64,000 nt of DNA from the NCBI RefSeq assembly GCF_003334385.1, contig NZ_QOWN01000018.1; one strand, 5' to 3'. Positions 19,888-31,441 of this stretch are shown one piece after another. Numbering within the stretch: position 1 is the first letter of the stretch; every line of letters begins with the position of its first letter. The notes beneath the pieces are model-generated. The model was not told the origin of the DNA. It ran no database searches and was given only the letters and a program-made list of their open reading frames with translations. A program made the translations under genes and the position numbers. The DNA comes from Escherichia coli. Lineage in GTDB: Bacteria > Pseudomonadota > Gammaproteobacteria > Enterobacterales > Enterobacteriaceae.

Positions 19888-20289
19888 TATTTGTTCCCTA
19901 AATACACCATGAGAACATACCTGTTAATAACAGGACAATATCAGGTGAATGATTATGCAATTCAACGGTGTTTTTCCAAGTATCTAAGCAGTTTTACACA
20001 GATTCTATGCAGTATCGGTATAGTCTCTTTTTAGCATAACTTATTGATATCTATAAAGAATCTGTGAAGTCTCTTTTCAGGGTAAACTGTATCGTGTTAG
20101 TCGTCCCTCTCTCGACTCCTAGAAAAGTGCTATATACAGGGCTATATAACGATATATAGATAGTTGGTCACATGGTGTAACTATCAAGAAACTTAACGAT
20201 TTCCTACGTGAAAGTTAGAAAGTGATGGTTATAGTTACCCTCCTAAAATCTTCATAGCTCCTTCATAACCAGTCTTAAAAGGACTTCCT

Positions 20290-20404
20290 TATGAGACACT
20301 TTCAACGTAACGGTAGAATGCACCTTCCAAGTGTCTCATAAGCTTGTTTTTGAATTATGAGACAGCTAAACTTATGAGACCAACTTTTGAGACTTCTTAG
20401 GGGG
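20290..20404. promoter_or_regulatory. res-like cluster of resolvase-type half-sites (TGTCTCATA, matching TGTCYNNTA) overlapping the promoter of the small serine recombinase gene
   Basis: TATGAGACA at 20290-20298 and inverted TGTCTCATA at 20332-20340; further direct copies at 20357-20365, 20373-20381 and partial at 20387-20394, ending just 5' of the RBS/ATG at 20409. Confidence 0.55.
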
Positions 20405-20408
20405 ATGT

Positions 20409-20957
20409 ATGGCGGTGATTGGTTATTGCAGGGTATCAACACAAGACCAGACTGTAGACAACCAGAAACTACAGATAGAGAAGGTTCACAAGGTCGATAA
20501 ATGGTTTATTGATGAGGCTGTCTCAGGAGCTACAAAGGCCACCAGCAGAGATGGTTTTAGAGACATGATGAACTATGTAAGGTGTGACGATACGTTAGTT
20601 GTGGTAGCTATTGACCGTTTAGGGCGTAATACCGTTGATGTGCTCTCTAACGTGGAGGCACTACAGACTAAAGGTGTGAGGGTTGTTTCTCTACGTGAAG
20701 GTTTCGACTTATTAACACCAATCGGTAGAGCAATGCTTACTATGATGGCTGGTTTAGCTGACCTTGAAAAAGACCTTATCAGTGAACGTAGAAAGGCTGG
20801 TATTGAACGTGCTAAAGCTGAAGGGGTTCACATGGGGAGACCTGTAAAAGCTTCTTCAGAGACTGTAAAGATGCTTATCTCACAAGGTAAAACGAGGTTG
20901 CAGATTCAGGAAGAGCTAGGAATCTCTAGAGCAACTTATTACAGACTTGCTAAATAA
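20409..20957 (+). CDS. small serine recombinase (resolvase/DNA-invertase family) with C-terminal HTH
   Basis: 182 aa; N-terminal catalytic motif VIGYCRVSTQDQ (active-site Ser), resolvase core, C-terminal HTH LGISRATYYRLAK; RBS GGGGGA upstream. Confidence 0.85.
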   Translation: MAVIGYCRVSTQDQTVDNQKLQIEKVHKVDKWFIDEAVSGATKATSRDGFRDMMNYVRCDDTLVVVAIDRLGRNTVDVLSNVEALQTKGVRVVSLREGFDLLTPIGRAMLTMMAGLADLEKDLISERRKAGIERAKAEGVHMGRPVKASSETVKMLISQGKTRLQIQEELGISRATYYRLAK

Positions 20958-21300
20958 GTTACTGAATAGTTACATGGATGTAGCTGATATTTGGCTTTTT
21001 TGCAAAGGGGGTCACATAGCTGGTGTGACGGGTACTTAGCAGGTATAGACCTGTGATAGATATTTTCGAAGATTCGGGGAAGATGAGATTCAAAGAGGGC
21101 TAGTCATTTTTTATAAAAATTTTCAGAATCTGAAAAGTTACTGTACAGAATATATACAGACATCTTTAAAGTATCTGTAAAGACTTTTAAGATAAAAGAT
21201 AGATATCCAGAAAGGATATCCGTTTAGAAAGACTGTTAAGTATCTCTTAAAAGAGAGTAAACCTTGTCAATAGTGATTGCAATAAAAATTTTTATTTCTT

Positions 21301-21963
21301 ATGTCAATTGAGCATATTTTAATCGGGAAGCATCATGGGGGTTCTGATTACTGGAGAACTCCATTTTTGTTATTTAAGAATCTAAACTGTGAATATATTT
21401 TCACGCTGGATGGTGCTGCAACTAAGCACGATACGTTATTACCCCGCTTTACGGATGATATTCACAATCAATCGTGGATTGGCGAAAGGGTGTTCTGTAA
21501 CCCGCCGTACAGCGATATTCCGTCGTTCCTCATAAAAGCGTCTGAGGCAGATTTAGCGGTATTCCTGATACCGTATAGAGCCAACACCAGCTACTGGCTT
21601 AGGCACATTTACAGCAATAACCACTGTCATGAAATCCGTATTCTTCATCGTGCAGTTAAATACCTTCCACCAGCAGGCCATAACGGGCTTACTATTCGTT
21701 CACCGTTTCCAAGTGCAGTCATTGTTTTTAAAAAAGAACCACGCAGGCATGAAATTACGCAGATGATTTGCTGTGCTGATACATTGCTACCGTTAACCAT
21801 CATTAACAGAGGAGGCTTAAGAGGAAGACCCACCATTTACCCACCTGAGACGCTCGACAGCTTCATAAAACTATACAGGCAAGGAAAACCCATTAAGTGC
21901 ATTGCAGATGCTCTCAGAATGCCTCTGAGCACGTCATACAGGATTGCGCAAAGGTTGAGCTAA
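21301..21963 (+). CDS. phage-type DNA N6-adenine methyltransferase (Dam/T1-like family) with C-terminal HTH-like extension; orphan (no cognate nuclease recognised)
   Basis: 220 aa; motifs DYWRTP, FTLDGAA and catalytic CNPPYS (NPPY), ...FPSAVIVF; extra C-terminal approx 70 aa with HTH-like segment. Confidence 0.75.
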   Translation: MSIEHILIGKHHGGSDYWRTPFLLFKNLNCEYIFTLDGAATKHDTLLPRFTDDIHNQSWIGERVFCNPPYSDIPSFLIKASEADLAVFLIPYRANTSYWLRHIYSNNHCHEIRILHRAVKYLPPAGHNGLTIRSPFPSAVIVFKKEPRRHEITQMICCADTLLPLTIINRGGLRGRPTIYPPETLDSFIKLYRQGKPIKCIADALRMPLSTSYRIAQRLS

Positions 21964-22325
21964 AATTCTCATAAATATGGTCATTTACAAGACAGGTGAT
22001 TCAGATATTAAGAAGTATCCCTGTGAACAATAAATGACCAATCAGTAATTATTCTGTGAAATAATTGTTGCAATTTATAATCACATCTGTTATAGTTTCT
22101 ATATGGGCTGATAAAAAAGTTCATGTCTTGAAGTGGTAACACTTGGGGAGGTGTCAGATGGTTGGCGTATAAAACCTCTCATTCATGGTATACCTCAGCG
22201 TTTTAATCATCGTACTGTTTCAGGCATGGACTTCTTTATCAGTCCATCAATCCCCCAGATATTTTAATCACACAGGCTAATCGGTTTTATCCGGTTGGCC
22301 TTTTCACATATGAGGTATTTTATGA

Positions 22326-23294
22326 ATGAAAAAAGAAACTAATGCTTTTATTATGGTAGATAAACGAGTTGCACAATTCCCTAAAACATTAAAGCCAATT
22401 GACCGCTTGGTATATTTCACTATGCTGGATGGTGCTGATTATTACGAATCTAAGTTCGGGAGATATGCACCAAGTATTGACTATTTGATGGTTATGTCTG
22501 GTGCTACACGTAATACAGTTATTGACTCTCTGAAAAGACTTGAGTCACACAGGCTTATTGAGAAGACCAATATCAAAGGGCAGCAAAGTATTTTTAAAGT
22601 ATTCACGTTAGATGAGCGTCCAGAAGTCTTATCAGAACCTACCCTTGATGAGCGTCGTAGAGTCAAATTATCAGGTCAACCAGAATCTGACACTAACCCA
22701 ACCAAAAATTGGTTACCTACCCAACCAGAATTTGGTTACCTACCTAACCAGAAATTGGTTACATGTAATACTGAATATAAAGACAAAAATATAAAAACTA
22801 AAGAAGAAAGACTAAAAGGGAACTTTGAAGAAGAATCTCTTAAGAAGGGAGCTTCGCTCTGTGATTCACATGAATGTGATATTAAAGAAGATGACTTTCT
22901 TTCTTTGGATGAATTAAATGATTTTCTCTCTATGAATGAATCTGACCTTGATAGTGAAGCTACTAAAGAGGTCGTTAAAAAGGAAGATAAAATCTCTGAT
23001 GTGATTGCTAGTAGTGACCATAAAAACACACAGTGCCCCGCCACTGATGATGAGATGGACCCCTTCGATGATGATGAAGAGGATGAAGAGTCAGAACGTG
23101 AAAAAGCCATTAAGAGGGTAGAGAAGAAAAAGAGATTCGAGCTTGCAAGACAAAAGAACAAAGTATCGGGTTTAGACCCATTCGATGACAGTGAAGATGA
23201 TTATTATCTTTCACCGAGAAAGAAACAAACCCAGGATGACAAGAAGCAAAAAATTAAACCGAAGATGTATTTTGCTGGTGGAGGTATGCGCTAA
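22326..23294 (+). CDS. putative replication initiator (winged-helix N-terminal domain, acidic C-terminal tail) with origin-like iterons embedded in its coding sequence
   Basis: 322 aa; N-terminal winged-helix-like region; internal DNA iterons plus AT-rich tract resembling the lambda O/ori arrangement; C-terminus very rich in D/E. Confidence 0.55.
   Translation: MKKETNAFIMVDKRVAQFPKTLKPIDRLVYFTMLDGADYYESKFGRYAPSIDYLMVMSGATRNTVIDSLKRLESHRLIEKTNIKGQQSIFKVFTLDERPEVLSEPTLDERRRVKLSGQPESDTNPTKNWLPTQPEFGYLPNQKLVTCNTEYKDKNIKTKEERLKGNFEEESLKKGASLCDSHECDIKEDDFLSLDELNDFLSMNESDLDSEATKEVVKKEDKISDVIASSDHKNTQCPATDDEMDPFDDDEEDEESEREKAIKRVEKKKRFELARQKNKVSGLDPFDDSEDDYYLSPRKKQTQDDKKQKIKPKMYFAGGGMR
22676..22820. 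repeat. Origin-like iteron array (3-4 direct repeats of about 23 bp, each containing the palindrome AACCARAAWTTGGTT) followed by an AT-rich tract
   Basis: AACCCAACCAAAAATTGGTTACCTAC / CCAACCAGAATTTGGTTACCTAC / CTAACCAGAAATTGGTTACATG at 22695-22765, partial unit at 22677-22693, then AT-rich 22766-22820. Confidence 0.65.
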
Positions 23295-23584
23295 TGAGAG
23301 AATATAACGGTGAAAAACGATACAAAGATTATCTATTAAGGCGCTACAGCATTTCTCGTGAAGGTCATCTTCTGAAAGATACTCATGGGGAGGTTTACCG
23401 GATTCGACCGAAGAAGGAAGGAAAGAATTATTTCTTTTTTGATGGTGTGACAGATTTAAAGATTGACGCTTTGAGGTTTGCAGTGCTGTATCATTATGAT
23501 ATCTGGGATTCGGTCCACCAGCTACGATTAAAAGACGGTGACCCCGGTAATCTGAGGGCCACCAATATCATCACAAAACGTTAG
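23294..23584 (+). CDS. small protein, possibly degenerate HNH/NUMOD-like; function unknown
   Basis: 96 aa; start overlaps stop of upstream gene (TAATG); C-terminal segment LRLKDGDPGNLRATN loosely resembles HNH_3-type motifs. Confidence 0.4.
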   Translation: MREYNGEKRYKDYLLRRYSISREGHLLKDTHGEVYRIRPKKEGKNYFFFDGVTDLKIDALRFAVLYHYDIWDSVHQLRLKDGDPGNLRATNIITKR

Positions 23585-23903
23585 TTTGTTTTACCATCAT
23601 CAATCGTAATTGTGATTTCATATTTGAAAAGCTTAATGCTGAAATTGAATCGTGTACTTTTGGCGATAATCATTTTTAAAAGCTGATACACCAGAAGCAC
23701 CAGAAACACAAAGCAACCTAAGCTTGCGAATCTGTGAGATTCAGCAATTGTTTCAAGAAAGCCCATTAATTCCCCTTATTTATCAAAGGGAATGACCTGT
23801 ATCAGCCCCTATAACCATAATATCATGTAAATGAGATGTTGACAATATGTTAAATAAATGTTAAGATTGTAGTATGAGTAAGAGATTTAAGGAGATTTTT
23901 ACA

Positions 23904-24194
23904 ATGACTCACACAGTTACGCGCCTTTTGCCAGAGGCATTTGAACGACTGGCAGCAATCAAAGCCAAATACCCTGATATGAAGCACACGGCGCTTGTTG
24001 GAGAGCTTTTAAAAGAGTCGGTAGCCCTGACCCCTTTCGATAACGTTAAGGGCGTTGCAGAGGGTTCTAAGGCCATCAGAATCACAACAGGCCAACTGGA
24101 ACTACTCAAAGCGCAGTCCGCAGTAGCAGGTTGCTCAATGATTCAGGTGTTAAGCACTAAGGTTCATCAACTGGCGGATAAATTGGAGGTTTAA
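23904..24194 (+). CDS. hypothetical protein, possible ribbon-helix-helix DNA-binding regulator
   Basis: ORF track 23874..24194; the internal ATG at 23904 is preceded by RBS AAGGAG; predicted beta-strand/helix pattern (TVTRLLPEAFERLAAIKAK). Confidence 0.45.
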   Translation: MTHTVTRLLPEAFERLAAIKAKYPDMKHTALVGELLKESVALTPFDNVKGVAEGSKAIRITTGQLELLKAQSAVAGCSMIQVLSTKVHQLADKLEV

Positions 24195-24580
24195 TGTATG
24201 ACTTTTATAAACATCGTGACCATTTGGTAAGATTTGACGGTAGAGTCTGGAAAGACATAACAGAAACCAATAAACCCAAGTTTACCCACCAGCAATTAGC
24301 CTCAAGATTTGATATCTGGACTGAAGCACAAAAAGATAATGGTGATTTCGAGTTTATCAGGGGTTTTGATTATGCTTACGAAGATGACCTTAAAGACGCC
24401 ATTAAATTAATTGAAAATTTTAATGGAAATAATTCTGGTGACAAACACAAAGCCAATGGTAATCGGTATGACAGGGAGTTAATTCTTGATGCCATTTCCA
24501 GAGGTCAATCACAAAGTTATATTTCTGAGAAATACGGCTTATCACGTAGTCAATACTACAAGATTAAAGCGTCTGTGTAA
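24194..24580 (+). CDS. hypothetical protein with C-terminal HTH (regulator or terminase-small-subunit-like)
   Basis: 128 aa; start coupled to upstream stop (TTAATG) with RBS GGAGG; C-terminal HTH ISEKYGLSRSQYYKIKA. Confidence 0.5.
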   Translation: MYDFYKHRDHLVRFDGRVWKDITETNKPKFTHQQLASRFDIWTEAQKDNGDFEFIRGFDYAYEDDLKDAIKLIENFNGNNSGDKHKANGNRYDRELILDAISRGQSQSYISEKYGLSRSQYYKIKASV

Positions 24581-24717
24581 GCCTGTGAGAATGAGTGAGA
24601 CTCAAAGATGAGCTACCCTATTACTAAGGTGTCTCACTCCCTCTGTAACCCGCATGGTTACTGGCCTCAGAATGGCTATTTTGGCAGATTTAAGATGTGT
24701 TTTAGAGGAATTTAAAA

Positions 24718-25041
24718 ATGAACAACTTCCCATTACAAATTTTCGTTGATAACGACACCGCTCTGATGATTCAGGCTTTCACTGATTCCGGTGTATCAAT
24801 TGACTTTGACAGGCTGTTAGAGTTGATGGCTGATAATGCAGAAAACATCTCTGACTTTATTCAGTCGGTGGAGTTTAACGAGCCTCGAATGATGCTACCA
24901 ATTAAAGACAGCAACATGAAAAGATTGGTTATCGAGCAAACGAACAAATACAGCGTTAGCCCTGAAAGATATCTCAAGGCAGCTATAGCAATTTTGTGCG
25001 CTGACAATATTTTGGTGACGGATTCGAAGGTGGTGCATTAA
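24718..25041 (+). CDS. hypothetical protein
   Basis: 107-aa ORF with RBS AGAGGA; no recognisable motif. Confidence 0.45.
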   Translation: MNNFPLQIFVDNDTALMIQAFTDSGVSIDFDRLLELMADNAENISDFIQSVEFNEPRMMLPIKDSNMKRLVIEQTNKYSVSPERYLKAAIAILCADNILVTDSKVVH

Positions 25042-25118
25042 TGGGCTTAATAATTGCTTGGACAGCTTTGGGTTTATTTGTTGGTTGCTGGGTAGGTAAC
25101 ACAGTAAATAAGAATTGA
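25041..25118 (+). CDS. candidate small hydrophobic peptide (25 aa, single predicted TM helix), translationally coupled to upstream ORF
   Basis: ATG overlaps upstream TAA (TAATGG); encodes MGLIIAWTALGLFVGCWVGNTVNKN; below the size cut-off of the ORF track. Confidence 0.3.
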   Translation: MGLIIAWTALGLFVGCWVGNTVNKN

Positions 25119-25535
25119 TGTTGCCAATCTGTTAAAAAGCTGTTGACAAATAACCTTAAGCATGACATAATTTTAATTATGGGAGAGTAATTCTCTCTTA
25201 TATTTCTTTCAATAATCCGATGGATGGATGGATATTCTGAGTTGGTGAGGTATGTTCTATACCGAACATTCTGAAAGGTGCAATGCTTTTCGCTACATGA
25301 CCTCTTATATAACCTGAGAGGTCATCTCGAAAAGTACTCTTGTTCATTCGTTATTGAATCCTTTAGATGTTTTAATTTCTTCACCTTATGAATAGCCCTT
25401 TATAAGAAATTATCTAGGGCTATTCAGTTTTTAAAAAGCATACTTGGCAAACCGCCTTTTAAGTCTCTTCTAAGTTCGTAGGCTGTCAGGTGTGCTTTTT
25501 AAAAACTGAATATACTTAGAAGAGGAAATGAAATA

Positions 25536-26246
25536 ATGGCAAATGACATTTATATTAGTGGAAGAAAAATTGATAGCTTCGGTGACTGGTCGCCACAGAC
25601 TGAACATCCAGCTATCGTTATTCAGCGTAAAGAACACGATGCGAGAATTGAGCTTGAGCAAGAGCTAAAGATGTCACCAAAGCAAATTACCTTTGTGTCT
25701 CCTGAGCCTCAAGAGATGCCTGATGTATGCAAGAGTGAAGCATTGCTTGAGCTTGAAAAGAAATATTTCCCAGCTTTAAAAGCACAGCGTCTTAGATTAG
25801 ATGACGCTTACAGCAAAGTTACCCTGATGCAATCAGCTATTGAACCGTCAGAATTTGAGATTCAGGATGAATTGTCACAGAAACCATTTGTTTATTACCA
25901 ATATGCAGACAATGATGGTTTTGGTACTTTTCCTGAGAATATCCCAGACGCGATTAGTAGTCTTCCTGATGGATATCGAATTGTGAAGATGGTTAAAGCT
26001 TCAAGGGGTGCTGGTCAATTTATTTATATGACCAATAAGAGCGATGAAGAACTCGCTGAACTTGCTAGACAGAACATCTTGGCATCACGTAACAAGCAGC
26101 TTGATAGTGCTAAGTTGTATCTCTCAAGAGAGCTTCAGGCTATGAAAGAGCTTGTTAGTGAATATGAGTCGCAGAAGAAGATTGCTATGCAAGCTGATAT
26201 TGAGCAGTTAGTGAAGATTTCTCAGAAGTATAGTAAAGCACTTTAA
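25536..26246 (+). CDS. hypothetical protein with C-terminal coiled-coil
   Basis: 236-aa ORF with RBS GAGGAAA; no recognisable catalytic motif. Confidence 0.5.
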   Translation: MANDIYISGRKIDSFGDWSPQTEHPAIVIQRKEHDARIELEQELKMSPKQITFVSPEPQEMPDVCKSEALLELEKKYFPALKAQRLRLDDAYSKVTLMQSAIEPSEFEIQDELSQKPFVYYQYADNDGFGTFPENIPDAISSLPDGYRIVKMVKASRGAGQFIYMTNKSDEELAELARQNILASRNKQLDSAKLYLSRELQAMKELVSEYESQKKIAMQADIEQLVKISQKYSKAL

Positions 26247-26270
26247 TTATGAATTAAGAAGAGGTGATTA

Positions 26271-26480
26271 ATGTTTGAAGAACGTTTAGAGACTATTCGG
26301 TCTGTTTGTGAAAACTTAAAGTTACAAACCAAGCCAGCCTTAAGAATTAAAACCAAACATCAAATTATCACCTCACACAAACCAAAAACACGCAAGATTC
26401 CAAAGTGGTGTATTGACCGTATTCCTTCTGATGCTCAAATCATAGGTGAAACGGAATTACATTATCTTGTCCGACATTAA
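26271..26480 (+). CDS. hypothetical small basic protein
   Basis: 69-aa ORF with RBS GAGGTG. Confidence 0.4.
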   Translation: MFEERLETIRSVCENLKLQTKPALRIKTKHQIITSHKPKTRKIPKWCIDRIPSDAQIIGETELHYLVRH

Positions 26481-26577
26481 AAATTGGTTGGGTAAAATCA
26501 ACGGGAGAGATTATCGAGTGACATCGGTAGTTTCTCCTTTTTTTGTATATGAACACTTAAGAGGTGAAAAAATATGA

Positions 26578-28749
26578 ATGGCACAGTTTAAAGTTGATGA
26601 TTTTCTGATTGAGCTAGGTTTTAACTCTCAGAGGGTTTTAAAAGGTCTGGAAAAAGCCGAGAAACAAACGATGCAGGTAGCATCACGAATTGAGAAGCGA
26701 TTGAATAAAGCTTTTAAAGTTAACCCTACGCCTTTAAATGATTCTCTCAAGGTCATGGAAAGAAATGTCGATAAAACTGTTTCCAAGATTGAGCAGCGTC
26801 TTAAAAACACTAAAGCGTTTAAGATTAAAACGGAAATTGAGGATACTTTAAAGCCACTTAAACAACCGAGACAGCCACGAATTAGCGGCAACAGAGCAAT
26901 CACAGCAGCACATAGTGTGAATATGTCTAAGCTTGGTGATATTAATCCGCTGATGGCTAAAATGTTTAAAGCACAGTATTACAGCTTAAGCGGTAAGGCT
27001 GGTAATATTGGAAGTGAAAAGTTTAACGCTGAACTTGCAAAATTAAATCAATCTCTTCGTGAAACGTTGAATAAACTCAGGTCACAGACAAAGACCGCCA
27101 GCATCAGCAAAGTAAATGATTCCTTTAATAATCTTGCAAGCAATGCAATTAAGTTATCTGGTGCATTTTACTCTGTGATGGGTGCTCTTAACGCTTACAA
27201 GGCCATTATGAATGCAGGTCTTAAACGAGATTCCGCACAGAGAGCCGCTAAGTTTGTACTTGGTGATAAAGCATCTGAAGCTGAAACATTTATCAGGGGA
27301 CTGGCTGACAAGACAGGTCTTAATATCTCTGAAGGACTATCAAGCTACGCTAAGTTTGCAGCAGGTGCTCAGGGTTCTATGTCACAGGAACAGACACAGG
27401 AGCTATTTGGTAATGCAACGGCTATGAGCCGTTTAATGGGGCTTTCTAACGATGAACTAAACGGCATTTTGAAAGCTTTTGAGCAGATGGCTTCTAAGGG
27501 CAAGATTCAGGCTGAAGAATTACGTGGGCAGTTAGGTGACCGTATGGCTGGTGCATTTAAGCTATTCGCTGAAGCATTGGGTATGACTGCTACAGAGCTT
27601 GATGCAGCCATGAAAAACGGGAAGGTACTTTCCGCTGATACTCTCCCTAAAGTCGCTAAACAGATGGGCTTGATGATTGATAAAGCGGGTGGCTGGGCTG
27701 AAGTCGCTAAGAGCACCCAGACAGCTTTAGGTAAGTTAGCAAACAACTGGGATGATACGATGGTTAAAATCTTCTCAGGTTCACAGGATGAGTTAAACGG
27801 CTTCTTATCCAGCCTGGGTAGCCTGCTTAGTGAAATGGGGATGAGTTCTTCTATCGCTGGTGATGCTATCGGTGGACTTATCGACATGCTTAAAGCTGGT
27901 GTAGATGATATTCGCGTATTCAATAACACCATTGAAGGCTGGATTTTACAGGTTAAAAAGTTCTATTACAGCCTTGATGACACTAAACGAAAACTACTTG
28001 ATGAAGTCGGTGATGGTTTTATCAATTTTGTCAAAGGTCTTGCTATAGCGTTATCTGCAAAGACGCTATTCAGTGCCACTACAGGGGTGATGAACCTGAC
28101 AAGAGCAATCACAACGTTAGGTACAAGAGCTAATCAGGTGGCTGGTCAGGTAACTACTGGTAAAGGTGGTGGAAAACTGAAAGGTGTAGCTGGTGGTGTA
28201 GGTAGTGCTCTTGCAATTGGTTATGCTGATGACGGTTATGAAACAGCGTTAGCATTAGCTTCAATGATTCCACAAATCAGAGGTGTCACCCTTGGTTTAT
28301 ATGCATTGAAGAAAGCACTGGATTTTATGAATCAGGAAGTAGTCAAAAACGCTAATATGCATCCATCTGGGGTAGGTGTGGGTAGTGACTTTAATCCTGT
28401 GTATTCTGGTGACCCTAATAAACCGAATATGATTAACGAAGGATGGAGTAAAATTTTTAATTCAATGGGTGAATTGTTTAACAATGCCACAATGAATATT
28501 GCAAGATTCAATCATCCAGAATTAAACAACATTAAGCAAGATTCAGCATTAACGAGTGCAGATATTCAGAGTCTGAGGGATGAAATTAGTGCTTTGAGTA
28601 AACGTATTCAGGAGCCTGTGAAAGTTTCACTTGGTGGTGAAGTTGCCATTAAACCAGATGAAACCAGCTTTATGACCTTTAGCAGTAATATCTACGACCA
28701 ATATGCAGAAGCTACGCTATTAAGTTCATCATTCCCAGAAGATGATTGA
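26578..28749 (+). CDS. phage tail tape-measure-like protein
   Basis: 723 aa; coiled-coil N-terminal part; segment AEELRGQLGDRMAGAFKLFAEALGMTATELDAAMKNGKVLSADTLPKVAKQM resembles the conserved tape-measure N-terminal domain; Gly-rich middle. Confidence 0.65.
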   Translation: MAQFKVDDFLIELGFNSQRVLKGLEKAEKQTMQVASRIEKRLNKAFKVNPTPLNDSLKVMERNVDKTVSKIEQRLKNTKAFKIKTEIEDTLKPLKQPRQPRISGNRAITAAHSVNMSKLGDINPLMAKMFKAQYYSLSGKAGNIGSEKFNAELAKLNQSLRETLNKLRSQTKTASISKVNDSFNNLASNAIKLSGAFYSVMGALNAYKAIMNAGLKRDSAQRAAKFVLGDKASEAETFIRGLADKTGLNISEGLSSYAKFAAGAQGSMSQEQTQELFGNATAMSRLMGLSNDELNGILKAFEQMASKGKIQAEELRGQLGDRMAGAFKLFAEALGMTATELDAAMKNGKVLSADTLPKVAKQMGLMIDKAGGWAEVAKSTQTALGKLANNWDDTMVKIFSGSQDELNGFLSSLGSLLSEMGMSSSIAGDAIGGLIDMLKAGVDDIRVFNNTIEGWILQVKKFYYSLDDTKRKLLDEVGDGFINFVKGLAIALSAKTLFSATTGVMNLTRAITTLGTRANQVAGQVTTGKGGGKLKGVAGGVGSALAIGYADDGYETALALASMIPQIRGVTLGLYALKKALDFMNQEVVKNANMHPSGVGVGSDFNPVYSGDPNKPNMINEGWSKIFNSMGELFNNATMNIARFNHPELNNIKQDSALTSADIQSLRDEISALSKRIQEPVKVSLGGEVAIKPDETSFMTFSSNIYDQYAEATLLSSSFPEDD

Positions 28750-28905
28750 TTTAACGGTGTTCTACGTGAATAAAGCAAAGTTAATACCCGCACTAAAAAT
28801 TATTTTTTACGTAGCACACGCTTAACAGAGAAAATACTTATATATCAAAGGCTTGGTTAAAAATGATTAAAATACACTAAGCCTTTGAAATCAAAGGAGA
28901 ATTTA

Positions 28906-29694
28906 ATGATTTACTCTAATCAACTTCGTTACAGTGGCAAAGATGGTGTTTACTTCCATCTACAAGGCCAACCAGATAATTTCTTGTCACTATCAGCAAC
29001 AGAGAACATGGAATTTGACAGCCCTATGATGGTGACCACTCAAAATATGCAATCAGGGCAGACTGTAACAGATAATGTAATGCGTTCACCCAGAACTATT
29101 TCAATCAGTGGTGTGGTTGTAGTTGGTGAATCCGGTAGTATCCTCATCTCAAGAGATAATAAGCTGGTGGAAAACTTCATCGACACTCTTGAAAGCTGGC
29201 GTGACCAGAAGCAAATTATTTCGGTCATCTGTAAAGACGGAATTAAAATTGATGATTCTATTATTACGAGTTTTAAAGCCTCTAAAGATGTTGGTATTTC
29301 AAATGGTCTAAGAGTCCAGCTAACTTTTCAGGAAATTAACTTTAAAGCAATTGTAGGGCAAACTGATGTTTCAGCAGCTACTGGCAAAGCTGCCACCACG
29401 AATGACGGTGGTGTGACCAGTAAGAAGAATGCAGGTAACGTGACCACTGAACGCAATAACGCGCCTATGCTATCGTGCAAAGAGTTAATGAATATTAGCG
29501 ATGTATCCGGTTACGTTCCGGCTATCAGAAATGATATTCTCGATGCTCAGATTAAGTGCAATAAAGCTTGGAAGCTGGACTATTCAGACTTAACAGAAGC
29601 TGAAAAAACCAACGTCACCAATGCTAATAGTAACGCTGGTCGAGTAGCTTCAAAGCTTAAAAAGTACTCAGTGAATCCTAATAAGAGATACTAA
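28906..29694 (+). CDS. hypothetical protein downstream of tape-measure gene (possible tail-associated protein)
   Basis: ORF track 28885..29694; ATG at 28906 preceded by RBS AAAGGAGA; gene order after the tape-measure gene. Confidence 0.45.
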
Positions 29695-31220
29695 ATCTCT
29701 ACTACATCAACATCTATTAAACCCCTCTCAGTGACTTCAGAAAGCGACTGTATAGCCTCTGTAACGTTGTCTGAGGGGTTTTCTGTTATAGGTAGGTCAA
29801 TTACCTTGCCGTTGTGAAAAGTCACTTTACAGCGACGTTTAGCGGCATCTATAACTATTTCTTTGAGTACGCCCTTGATAAGTAGCTGTGTCTCTATCAT
29901 CCCTTCCTTTGTTGTCCTGTCAATATCTTTGAGGCTTCCAGTTGTGATGGCCTTTATCCGCTGTGTTTCCTCTTCGATATCATGATTGAGTTTTGATAGC
30001 GCATTCTTCATATCACGTAATTTCTCTGTGATAATTGTCATGTCATCGAGTTCAATAGCGAGTTCTGCCATTTTTGAGATTTTACGCTGCAAATCTTCAC
30101 GCTGTAATTTAAGGCTATCAATAGTGTCAGTATTTTCAGTTTCAAAACGGTCGCATAATGCGAGCATGTAGAGAATAGTTGCATCCGTTTGCTTACGACT
30201 GATAGCCTTTGCACTACACCTGTTAGCTGAACGATTAGGGCATCTGTACATCCCAAAACGTTTTAAGGCATATCCACCAAGAACAATAGTAGCCCCACAC
30301 TCAGAACATTTGATGATACCCCTGAACAAGTTGACTGATAGCGGATTACTTGATACAGAAGCCCTACCATATTGCCCTGTGTTCAGTTGCTGTACTCGAT
30401 AGAATAGTGACTCACTGATTATTGCGGGGTAGTAACCCTGAACTTCTTCACGTCCAGCAGGTGTGAAACATCCAATCACAGCACGATTTCTGAGTAGTTT
30501 CTTTACAGCAGTATCAGACCACCCCTTTTGTTTGGGTGTGTATTGATTCAATGACAAGTGGCCTTCATCGTTTAAAGTTCTGGTGATAGCCCAAAAGCTT
30601 AAACCCTGTAATCTCAGGTCAAATGCTCGTTTAACAACTTCCACTTTATCGGGGATGATAGTGAATGTTCGACGGTCATCATTCAGCCTTAACCATGCAG
30701 GACAACGCCTAGATACCTTGATACCTTCGGAGATGAGTTCTTTTTTACGGTTCCATGCAGCTTGGACACGCTCAGACTTCCTCAGACTTTCCTCATGCGC
30801 CCGCTGCATTATCAGAATGCTTTTAATCAGGGATAACGGGTCTTTTAAACTTTCTCGTGTGTAATGTTCACCATCGGACAGGGTGACTACATCTACACCA
30901 GCCCTTAAGATACGGCGTAATAGCTCAGAAGCAATATCAATATCCTGACGTGACAGACGGTCTAAACTCTCGATTAGTAGCGTATCACCAGCTTTAACAA
31001 GCCCTTTCTCGATAGCGGTTAGAAAGTCACCTAGACCACCTTTCAGGTGCTTACCACTAAAAGCACTTTTCCCCAAATCTTTAAAGCTCAAGGATGAATC
31101 CAAGTAAAACTCAGGGTTCTTATCAAGCCAGTCAGTAACCAGCTTAGATTGTCTGCGTACAGAGTCCCCTTTTAGTTGTCGTTCACTTGAAAATCTGATG
31201 TAGCTGATTGCCCGTCTCAT
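29691..31220 (-). CDS. large serine recombinase (serine integrase)
   Basis: About 510 aa; N-terminal resolvase-type catalytic domain ([12 protein letters not shown], active-site Ser), recombinase domain, zinc-ribbon-like Cys cluster (CSECGATIV...CPNRSANRC), C-terminal coiled-coil; first ATG at 31220, track start at 31226 is TTG. Confidence 0.88.
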
Positions 31221-31243
31221 ATTCAATACCTAAAATGATGTGT

Positions 31244-31441
31244 TTAGGAACCCATTATACTGAAGACAATACCGGACCACATATTCAGGGCGGAGTGACC
31301 GGTAACGCCAAGCTGCTCAACGTAGAGGGGTAAGAAGGGCATTACCAGACTGAAGGCGGCACCGGTAAGAAAACAGCCTAGCCAGGCGACGATCAGGTTT
31401 CGTTTCCAGTTTATAGGGGTGTCATTTTCACAGGGTGACAT
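31244..31441 (-). pseudogene. mdtG: mdtG 5' fragment (N-terminal 58 codons of MdtG fused to 7 element-derived codons before a stop)
   Basis: Starts [16 protein letters not shown]... as MdtG; sequence diverges at the junction near 31260. Confidence 0.85.

Follow-up and report, generated by a model that had tools for sequence, protein, structure and literature searches.

In a 64,000-nucleotide stretch of Escherichia coli DNA (contig NZ_QOWN01000018.1 of assembly GCF_003334385.1), called the window below, a gene for a small serine recombinase of the resolvase type (182 amino acids (aa), 20409..20957, + strand) lies in an 11.3-kb mobile element and is immediately preceded by an array of short repeated half-sites. 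The start codon is the ATG at 20409, with a ribosome-binding site, GGGGGA, at 20400-20405. Judged from its sequence, the open reading frame (ORF) is a complete small serine recombinase, with the residues Y6, R8, S10, D69, R70 and R73, all of them invariant in an alignment with seven relatives, and a C-terminal helix-turn-helix (HTH) domain whose recognition helix reads ISRATYYRL. In other words, the array adjoins a gene for a protein within the usual range of about 180-210 aa that has both the catalytic residues and the HTH of its class. Over residues 1-180 it matched Gin (2.9e-22), gamma-delta resolvase (3.6e-20) and Tn3 resolvase (3.2e-19) in the PDB, the alignment covering residues 1-178 of the two resolvases; Sin was a weaker match (9.6e-15). 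It also matched PHROG 125 at 7.9e-58, and no NCBIfam equivalog scored above its own cut-off. The segment 20271-20394 is probably the res site of this resolvase, serving autoregulation of the gene and multimer resolution, not inversion.

The motif TATGAGAC occurs in four exact copies within 91 bp, at 20290 (+), 20333 (-), 20356 (+) and 20373 (+), and a degenerate copy, TTTGAGACT, is found at 20386-20394. The sole further exact TATGAGAC in the window is at 31214 on the minus strand; this copy (31214-31221) spans ATG-AGA-CGx, the 5' end of a large serine recombinase ORF at the far end of the element, and as a lone half-site it was taken as probably a coincidence. In dinucleotide shuffles of the 64 kb the mean was 1.37 copies of TATGAGAC per shuffled window, and five or more copies were seen in 0 of 100 shuffles. 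The 125-bp array has five copies of TGAGAC, as many as all the other 11.2 kb of the 11,346-bp element (39% GC), and five copies in any 125 bp were obtained in 0 of 2000 first-order Markov simulations of the element. The clustering is far above chance, and chance is excluded. The repeated array that an initial annotation of this DNA had reported upstream of the small recombinase gene is therefore real; the same annotation had proposed that an equal density of the motif elsewhere in the AT-rich element would point to chance, and no such density was found.

An alignment of 18 upstream regions, from loci whose encoded proteins are 63-98% identical, was used to map the array. It consists of six half-sites that make up three subsites, spans 20271-20394 and ends 15 bp before the ATG. 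Site I, the putative crossover site (20271..20298), is a 28-bp inverted pair, aGTCTTAAA-aGGACTTCCt-TATGAGACa, with C20284-T20285 as its central dinucleotide. It was conserved as aGTCTyAAAA-N8-TTtTrAGAC in 17 of the 18 close relatives, and the same 24-bp core-to-core geometry was found in about 50 relatives with half-sites of the GAGCY type (described below). The array thus has the 28-bp, dyad-symmetric, gene-distal site I that is characteristic of Tn3 and gamma-delta, and its geometry is constant across the family. A 33-bp spacer (20299..20331), which contains TAGAAT at 20314-20319, separates sites I and II; it varies in sequence and length among the relatives, only a subset of which keep an AGAATGC block, and in the window its length places the centres of the two sites 63.5 bp apart, or about six helical turns.

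Site II (20332..20364) is an accessory site made of a 33-bp inverted pair, TGTCTCATA-N15-TATGAGACA, with the consensus tGTCTCAAAAGgTTGaTyttnnnTTtTGAGACa, and from this site to the ATG the 18 loci aligned with no insertion or deletion. Site III (20372..20394, + strand), the second accessory site, is of a different kind, as its half-sites TTATGAGAC (20372-20380) and TTTTGAGAC (20385-20393) are arranged head-to-tail, 13 bp apart and facing the gene (consensus tnTGAkACtanCTTTTGAGAC). No inverted partner fits the site III half-sites (3/9 matches, by direct reading). The head-to-tail arrangement was found in every relative, so that not all three subsites are inverted pairs in this family, and it recurs in the GAGCY clade with a period of 13-14 bp. 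The centres of sites II and III are 34.5 bp apart. Only three convergent half-site pairs were found in the whole 64 kb, namely site I, site II and a weak pair at 21966-21993, site III being a direct pair.

This map changes several details of the initial annotation. The motif copies it listed stand, but its start of the array, 20290, does not: the true start is 20271, where a sixth, degenerate half-site (aGTCTTAAA, 20271-20279) had been overlooked. The copies at 20290 and 20332, which it had presented as an inverted pair, do not form a functional pair; conservation in the relatives pairs 20271-79 with 20290-98 and 20332-40 with 20356-64, the 20290 copy being the right half of site I and the 20332 copy the left half of site II. 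That TGTCTCATA agrees with the gamma-delta half-site consensus TGTCYNNTA is only partly meaningful, as neither the outer T nor the inner TA is conserved in this family, for which the 18 aligned loci give the half-site consensus (n)GTCTYAAAA / TTTTGAGAC(n). A structural reading of the array in RNA or DNA was set aside; its single-strand fold (z = -2) is a trivial product of the inverted half-sites.

A predicted promoter is embedded in the region of sites II and III. The putative -35 element (TTGTTT, 20344..20349, + strand) lies at the centre of site II, and the putative -10 element (TAAACT, 20367..20372, + strand) follows 17 bp further on, between sites II and III, with a predicted transcription start at about 20379-20380, within site III. 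The family consensus of the -35 element is TTGATY/TTGACW, and its TTG was at least 90% conserved in the 18 loci. The -10 element of the relatives is TATTAT, TATATT or CATAAT (consensus tAt..T / TAtnaT), with A2 and T6 conserved in at least 90%. In the GAGCY clade GTTGA, GTTGT or GTTGC is central in site II; since TTG was required for detection in that clade, its position is informative and its presence is not. A promoter scan missed the -10 element of the window, where only 8 of 12 positions match, and reported a possible second, upstream promoter, ATGAGA-17-TAGAAT, at 20291-20319. The conserved TTGaTy-17 bp-TAtnaT pair in fixed columns indicates, at the level of sequence, that the recombinase promoter overlaps the accessory sites, in line with the initial annotation.

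The I-II-III layout was kept in the 18 relatives, which include plasmids, defence islands and sister elements, and 12 other Enterobacterales genera had the same layout ahead of genes of 63-98% identity. A Klebsiella pneumoniae plasmid carries the array together with a recombinase gene of 68% identity, and the array alone gave matches upstream of 65%-identical recombinase genes in unlike E. coli defence islands, one of which has the module beside an Eco29kI restriction-modification system at tRNA-Leu, and another next to a TIR protein, together with a tyrosine integrase. When one genome per species was scanned, 80 further loci were added. In a distant blastn search, the left arm of the element was found in 589 E. 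coli genomes, 183 of which matched at least 80% of a query made of the arm plus the array. About two thirds of the genomes with the left arm lacked the array, and the one that was inspected (locus L004) also lacked the gene: in it, the segment corresponding to 20237-24707, with the array, the recombinase, the methylase and the replication initiator (Rep), is swapped for unrelated DNA. By these sequence comparisons, the array travels with the gene and not with the element.

More distant relatives (about 50% identical; Halomonas, Pseudomonas, Zoogloea, Aeromonas and others) had the same layout with GAGCY half-sites, and a putative crossover site with accessory sites directly upstream of the gene was thus present in 18 close and about 50 distant relatives. 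The half-site sequence differed with the recognition helix of the protein. At 20 loci with the helix IS[RK]A[TS][YF]YRL, TGAKAC occurred at 3.9 versus 0.4 per 150 bp, and at 54 loci with the helix ..SVKRA, TGAKCY occurred at 4.5 versus 0.1 per 150 bp; smaller groups had other helices and other motifs, such as TTAGACA in L048. This co-variation provides indirect support for binding of the recombinase at the half-sites.

The co-variation also bears on whether the repeats might instead be bound by another protein of the element, such as Rep at its iterons or origin, or have arisen by chance in AT-rich DNA. The element does encode Rep, and other repeat families are found nearby. However, Rep has 23-bp iterons of its own, of unrelated sequence and within its own gene; the array is found with no Rep in islands and plasmids, and it co-varies with the recombinase helix; and chance is excluded by the shuffles and simulations. 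This explanation is extremely improbable, and the iteron or origin reading of the array was rejected.

The distance between the centres of sites I and II was measured in 65 loci. It was 51-54.5 bp in 42 of them, 61.5-64.5 bp in 16 (including the window, at 63.5 bp) and 73.5-74.5 bp in five; two outliers were detection errors. No distance fell between these clusters, which centre on approximately 52.5, 63 and 73.5 bp and correspond to 5, 6 and 7 helical turns. In Tn3-like res sites the I-II distance is generally five turns but may be four to seven, and the phasing is needed for the synaptosome (PMC12217951). The window thus has an integral number of turns within this range.

The promoter and the spacing bear in opposite directions on a simpler explanation, in which the array is an operator only and the protein now serves as a domesticated repressor of the operon it belongs to, perhaps also of read-through from a conserved upstream promoter into the methylase and rep genes, with no recombination involved. 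Sites II and III lie directly over the conserved promoter, a single array per genome means that there is no partner site while the element is integrated, and a conserved promoter-like sequence, GTGAAA-16-TATAGT (20208-20235), reads into the array, all of which favours this explanation. Nevertheless, the catalytic residues are invariant in the family, and site I is the most regular subsite (fixed 28-bp geometry) even though it lies 45-75 bp upstream of the promoter. Whole-turn quantisation of the I-II distance, moreover, is relevant to a synaptosome but makes no difference to simple occlusion; because a simple repressor array needs no phasing, the quantised spacing indicates that the array is more than an operator. 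An operator-only role is therefore considered unlikely.

The initial annotation had left open whether the system serves multimer resolution or DNA inversion, and had suggested searching for a second copy of the site in either orientation. No second copy of the array was found in the window or in the flanks of the relatives (up to 4-14 kb per side) with an nhmmer profile and a scan for half-site pairs, which returned self-palindrome hits and one weak pair only; with the profile, each locus gave a single copy, invariably the one at the gene. Resolution fits the single array and its accessory subsites, whose helically phased spacing is a hallmark of resolvases (PMC12217951), and inversion is unsupported because there is no partner site. 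An inversion switch of the Hin/Gin/Pin type, with the array as one of two inverted crossover sites, would agree with the protein family and size, with Gin as nominally the best PDB match with 'DNA invertase' as the best PHROG annotation and with the presence of the weak inverted half-site pair at 21966-21993. The Gin and gamma-delta resolvase scores are almost equal, however, and the weak pair has poor half-sites and a spacer of 10 instead of 8, with about two such pairs expected by chance. This pair, TTCTCATAA-N10-TTACAAGAC, is located just past the stop codon of the methylase gene.

Invertases act on two inverted 26-bp sites with the help of a Fis-bound enhancer, and to our knowledge they have no accessory recombinase sites. 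The array, in contrast, has six conserved half-sites where an invertase has single 26-bp sites, and there is no second site I or array in the window or in any relative's flanks, so that two inverted crossover sites flanking a segment, as in Hin and Gin, were not found in the 64 kb. On this evidence an inversion switch is very unlikely.

The res site of Tn3 has a 34-bp site II, a 5-bp spacer and a 25-bp site III, which gives a II-III centre distance of 34.5 bp, the same as in the window. Its total length of 114 bp (PMC2602789) is consistent with this 34-5-25 layout. The system in the window is similar to Tn3 and gamma-delta (Tn1000) in many respects: a small serine recombinase (about 183 aa in those systems, aligned over its full length); a res site of approximately 115-125 bp, just ahead of the gene and made up of three subsites that together have six half-sites (PMC12217951, PMC2602789); a distal 28-bp site I, a site III next to the start codon and a promoter over site II (PMC12217951); a whole-turn I-II distance; and the half-site core GTCY. 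It differs in that site III is inverted in Tn3 (PMC9943657, PMC2428073) and head-to-tail here, the I-II distance is five turns in Tn3 and 63.5 bp (six turns) here, and the central dinucleotide is AT in Tn3 and CT here. The proteins have diverged too far (E of approximately 1e-19 to 1e-20) for more than a family-level assignment. A Tn3-family transposon carries tnpA and 38-bp terminal inverted repeats; the element has neither a transposase ORF nor terminal inverted repeats. No transposase-sized ORF (about 1000 aa) was found upstream of the gene in the relatives, where a few ORFs of at least 1000 aa lie downstream, and a Tn3-transposon origin of the module was rejected on account of the missing upstream ORF.

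A direct precedent is found in SGI1, an integrative element that replicates after excision and for which a restored res/resolvase system has been shown experimentally to remove multimers (PMC12217951). Like the element in the window, SGI1 has a single res with three subsites ahead of its small serine resolvase gene, with a 28-bp boxI that has a non-AT centre (PMC12217951). A third subsite next to the start codon and a promoter overlapping the second have been described for SGI1 as well (PMC12217951). Its boxIII was described as having 'very weak symmetry' (PMC12217951), and we read the boxIII oligonucleotides, TGTATAAAA-TTCTA-TGTTAAAAA, as two head-to-tail motifs 14 bp apart, much as in site III; a head-to-tail third subsite could thus be commoner than textbook accounts imply. 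SGI1 differs in its half-site, TGTTNAANA, in its subsite spacings (28-22-30-2-25), and in its tyrosine integrase and its mobilisation by IncC plasmids, in place of which the present element carries phage-tail-like genes and a large serine integrase. SGI1 Res was rejected as a member of the same lineage because the half-sites differ, and is regarded as a functional analogue only.

A head-to-tail accessory site is also the hallmark of Sin site II (PMC2428073, PMC9943657). Sin and beta resemble the present system in having a head-to-tail accessory subsite, bound by one asymmetric dimer (PMC2428073), and in their role in multimer resolution, in their case of Gram-positive plasmids. They have two subsites with an HU/IHF site between them, whereas here there is an extra palindromic site II, and no architectural-protein site was identified in the array in the 18-locus alignment, so that the two-subsite organisation of Sin and beta does not apply. 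Overall the kind of system is well known, with one architectural twist, the head-to-tail third subsite.

The mobile element that carries the module (11,346 bp, 19912..31257) is inserted in mdtG of the E. coli chromosome, its bounds being the ends of homology to uninterrupted genomes, and another E. coli strain has the same element between yciI and tonB. The closest 100% DNA match, NZ_CP041392, covers the right junction only and carries a different copy, disrupted by an insertion sequence. A large serine recombinase (511 aa, 29691..31226, - strand; PHROG 95 at 5.9e-81) is encoded at the end of the element opposite the 182-aa gene. The claim that the small recombinase belongs to a recombination system of its own, separate from the large integrase, is supported. 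Large serine recombinase genes were also observed within 2-4 kb of the module in Klebsiella michiganensis, Mixta and Lonsdalea (L011 187-1755, L012 35-1246 and L019 1722-3389), indicating that large and small serine recombinases occur together repeatedly, in several genera. A replication initiator gene (22326..23294, + strand; PHROG replication-initiation families, 5e-08 to 7e-04) contains three tandem 23-bp repeats, ACCCAACCAnAAwTTGGTTACCT, at 22696-22764, which are probably origin iterons arranged as in lambda O/ori. This gene and the res-resolvase module share the exchangeable segment 20237-24707.

The element also encodes a Dam-like methylase, several ORFs that lack an assignment, a 723-aa tape-measure-like protein and a 269-aa 'baseplate' protein, and no capsid or terminase genes were found among its genes. 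It looks like a phage satellite or a tail-related mini-element, and was not matched to a described family. In relatives from E. albertii, Lonsdalea, Mangrovibacter, Pantoea and Mixta, too, the resolvase occurs together with a tape-measure-like ORF. The non-coding left arm (19925-20236) is more conserved than the coding regions, and some 150 bp of it hardly differ between elements with different insertion sites and cargo. In addition to the conserved promoter-like sequence reading into the res module that was mentioned above, it contains a terminal hairpin, CCTGTTAATAACAGG (19920-19934), and 36-bp repeats at 20004-20039 and 20050-20085, 46 bp apart, with a third copy at 21163-21198. An intergenic inverted repeat at 25413-25520, upstream of a 236-aa ORF, has 37-nt arms that are 84% complementary and a 34-nt loop. 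An Rfam scan of the whole element gave nothing near the gathering thresholds, and 25413-25520 had no more than weak sub-threshold matches.

The surroundings of the module at other loci raise another explanation, in which the res site is mainly a hotspot for recombination or insertion in modular exchange, through rare res x res fusion of different mobile elements or the capture of res-hunting transposons; this would account for the variable defence cargo next to the module. In islands of other Enterobacterales (L002 6838-8693, L003 7212-9827, L015 6946-8514 and L016 5149-7502) the module is directly beside Eco29kI restriction-modification, TIR/PDC-S60, Hachiman HamB and PD-Lambda-2 genes, as if it were an edge marker of a variable defence-cargo slot, and the flanking DNA of L003, L016 and L020 differs from that of L002 and L017 all the way to the left edge of site I. 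On the E. coli plasmid pEC224_4 (L007 1-3001), 135 bp separate a GAGCY-type resolvase gene from the end of a TnAs1-family (Tn3-like) transposase gene upstream of it; the locus has kept sites II and III intact but lacks site I. This layout is consistent with insertion of a transposon into the I-II spacer, the same spacer in which In104 struck the res of SGI1 (PMC12217951). However, the variable cargo lies downstream of the recombinase gene and not across site I, so that crossover at site I does not explain it, and resolvase synaptosomes disfavour intermolecular fusion (PMC12217951). A hotspot would, in any case, be a by-product of a working res and not an alternative to it. As the main function of the site, a hotspot seems quite unlikely.

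If the array is a res site, three dimers of the resolvase would occupy the six half-sites (GTCTYAAAA / TTTTGAGAC) through the C-terminal HTH. Occupation of sites II and III would cover the -35 element, the promoter spacer and the transcription start, and the resolvase would in this way repress itself and keep its level low. The large serine integrase would excise the element, which would then replicate from its own Rep/iteron origin; replication and the formation of multimers are expected of the excised element because the Rep gene, with its iterons, belongs to that exchangeable segment. Dimers with two directly repeated res sites would arise by homologous recombination or rolling replication. 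The accessory sites of both copies would intertwine to form a synaptosome, with a geometry set by the I-II helical phasing, and dimers at both copies of site I would cut at C20284-T20285 and swap strands, releasing monomers. Tandem integrated copies or cointegrates would be resolved in the same way.

Several observations weigh against this reading. Binding, repression, the crossover point and resolution are all deduced from the anatomy of the site, and the window's own TTGTTT and TAAACT are weak promoter elements. Since site III is head-to-tail, unlike that of Tn3 and gamma-delta, a synaptosome of the Tn3 type is not simply to be assumed. No replication gene was evident near the module in the islands L002, L003 and L014-17, where the need for resolution of replicon multimers is accordingly not obvious. 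Neither a circular nor a multimeric form of the element was observed; circular 11-kb copies were sought in IMG/VR, which returned only pieces of 40-55 kb contigs and was uninformative. Lastly, the Tn3 R-interface residues R2, K54 and E56 are A, Y and R in the 182-aa protein; because R-interface residues vary between resolvases (PMC9943657), this last difference is uninformative.

More than 70 loci across the Gamma- and Betaproteobacteria may form a large resolvase family, one that is uncharacterised as far as could be found. Its res sites combine two palindromic subsites and one head-to-tail, gene-proximal subsite at Tn3-like spacing. Tentatively, its synaptosome would be intermediate between those of Tn3 and Sin, and the module, which in Enterobacterales is carried by small elements with a large serine recombinase for integration and phage-tail-like genes and is also found at the edge of variable defence slots, might aid modular exchange there as well as multimer resolution. 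No description of such a family was found in the literature searched by sequence strings, which returned unrelated primers only, or by the topic of multimer resolution and res, although this is weak evidence, as older subscription literature was thinly covered.

As the kind of system is well known, the gain is incremental. The 11-kb element appears to combine two serine-recombinase systems, of which the large one would integrate and excise the element and the small one would resolve multimers and repress its own gene, and the presence of two systems with different jobs argues for a replicating circular phase of the element. The analysis also provides an exact candidate map of res, with its subsites, promoter and crossover centre; the resolvase family to which it applies is widely distributed among plasmids, defence islands and satellite-like elements. 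Within that family, the quantisation of the I-II distance at 5, 6 and 7 turns and the joint switch of recognition helix and half-site may serve as natural experiments on how synaptosomes are built and how specificity changes.

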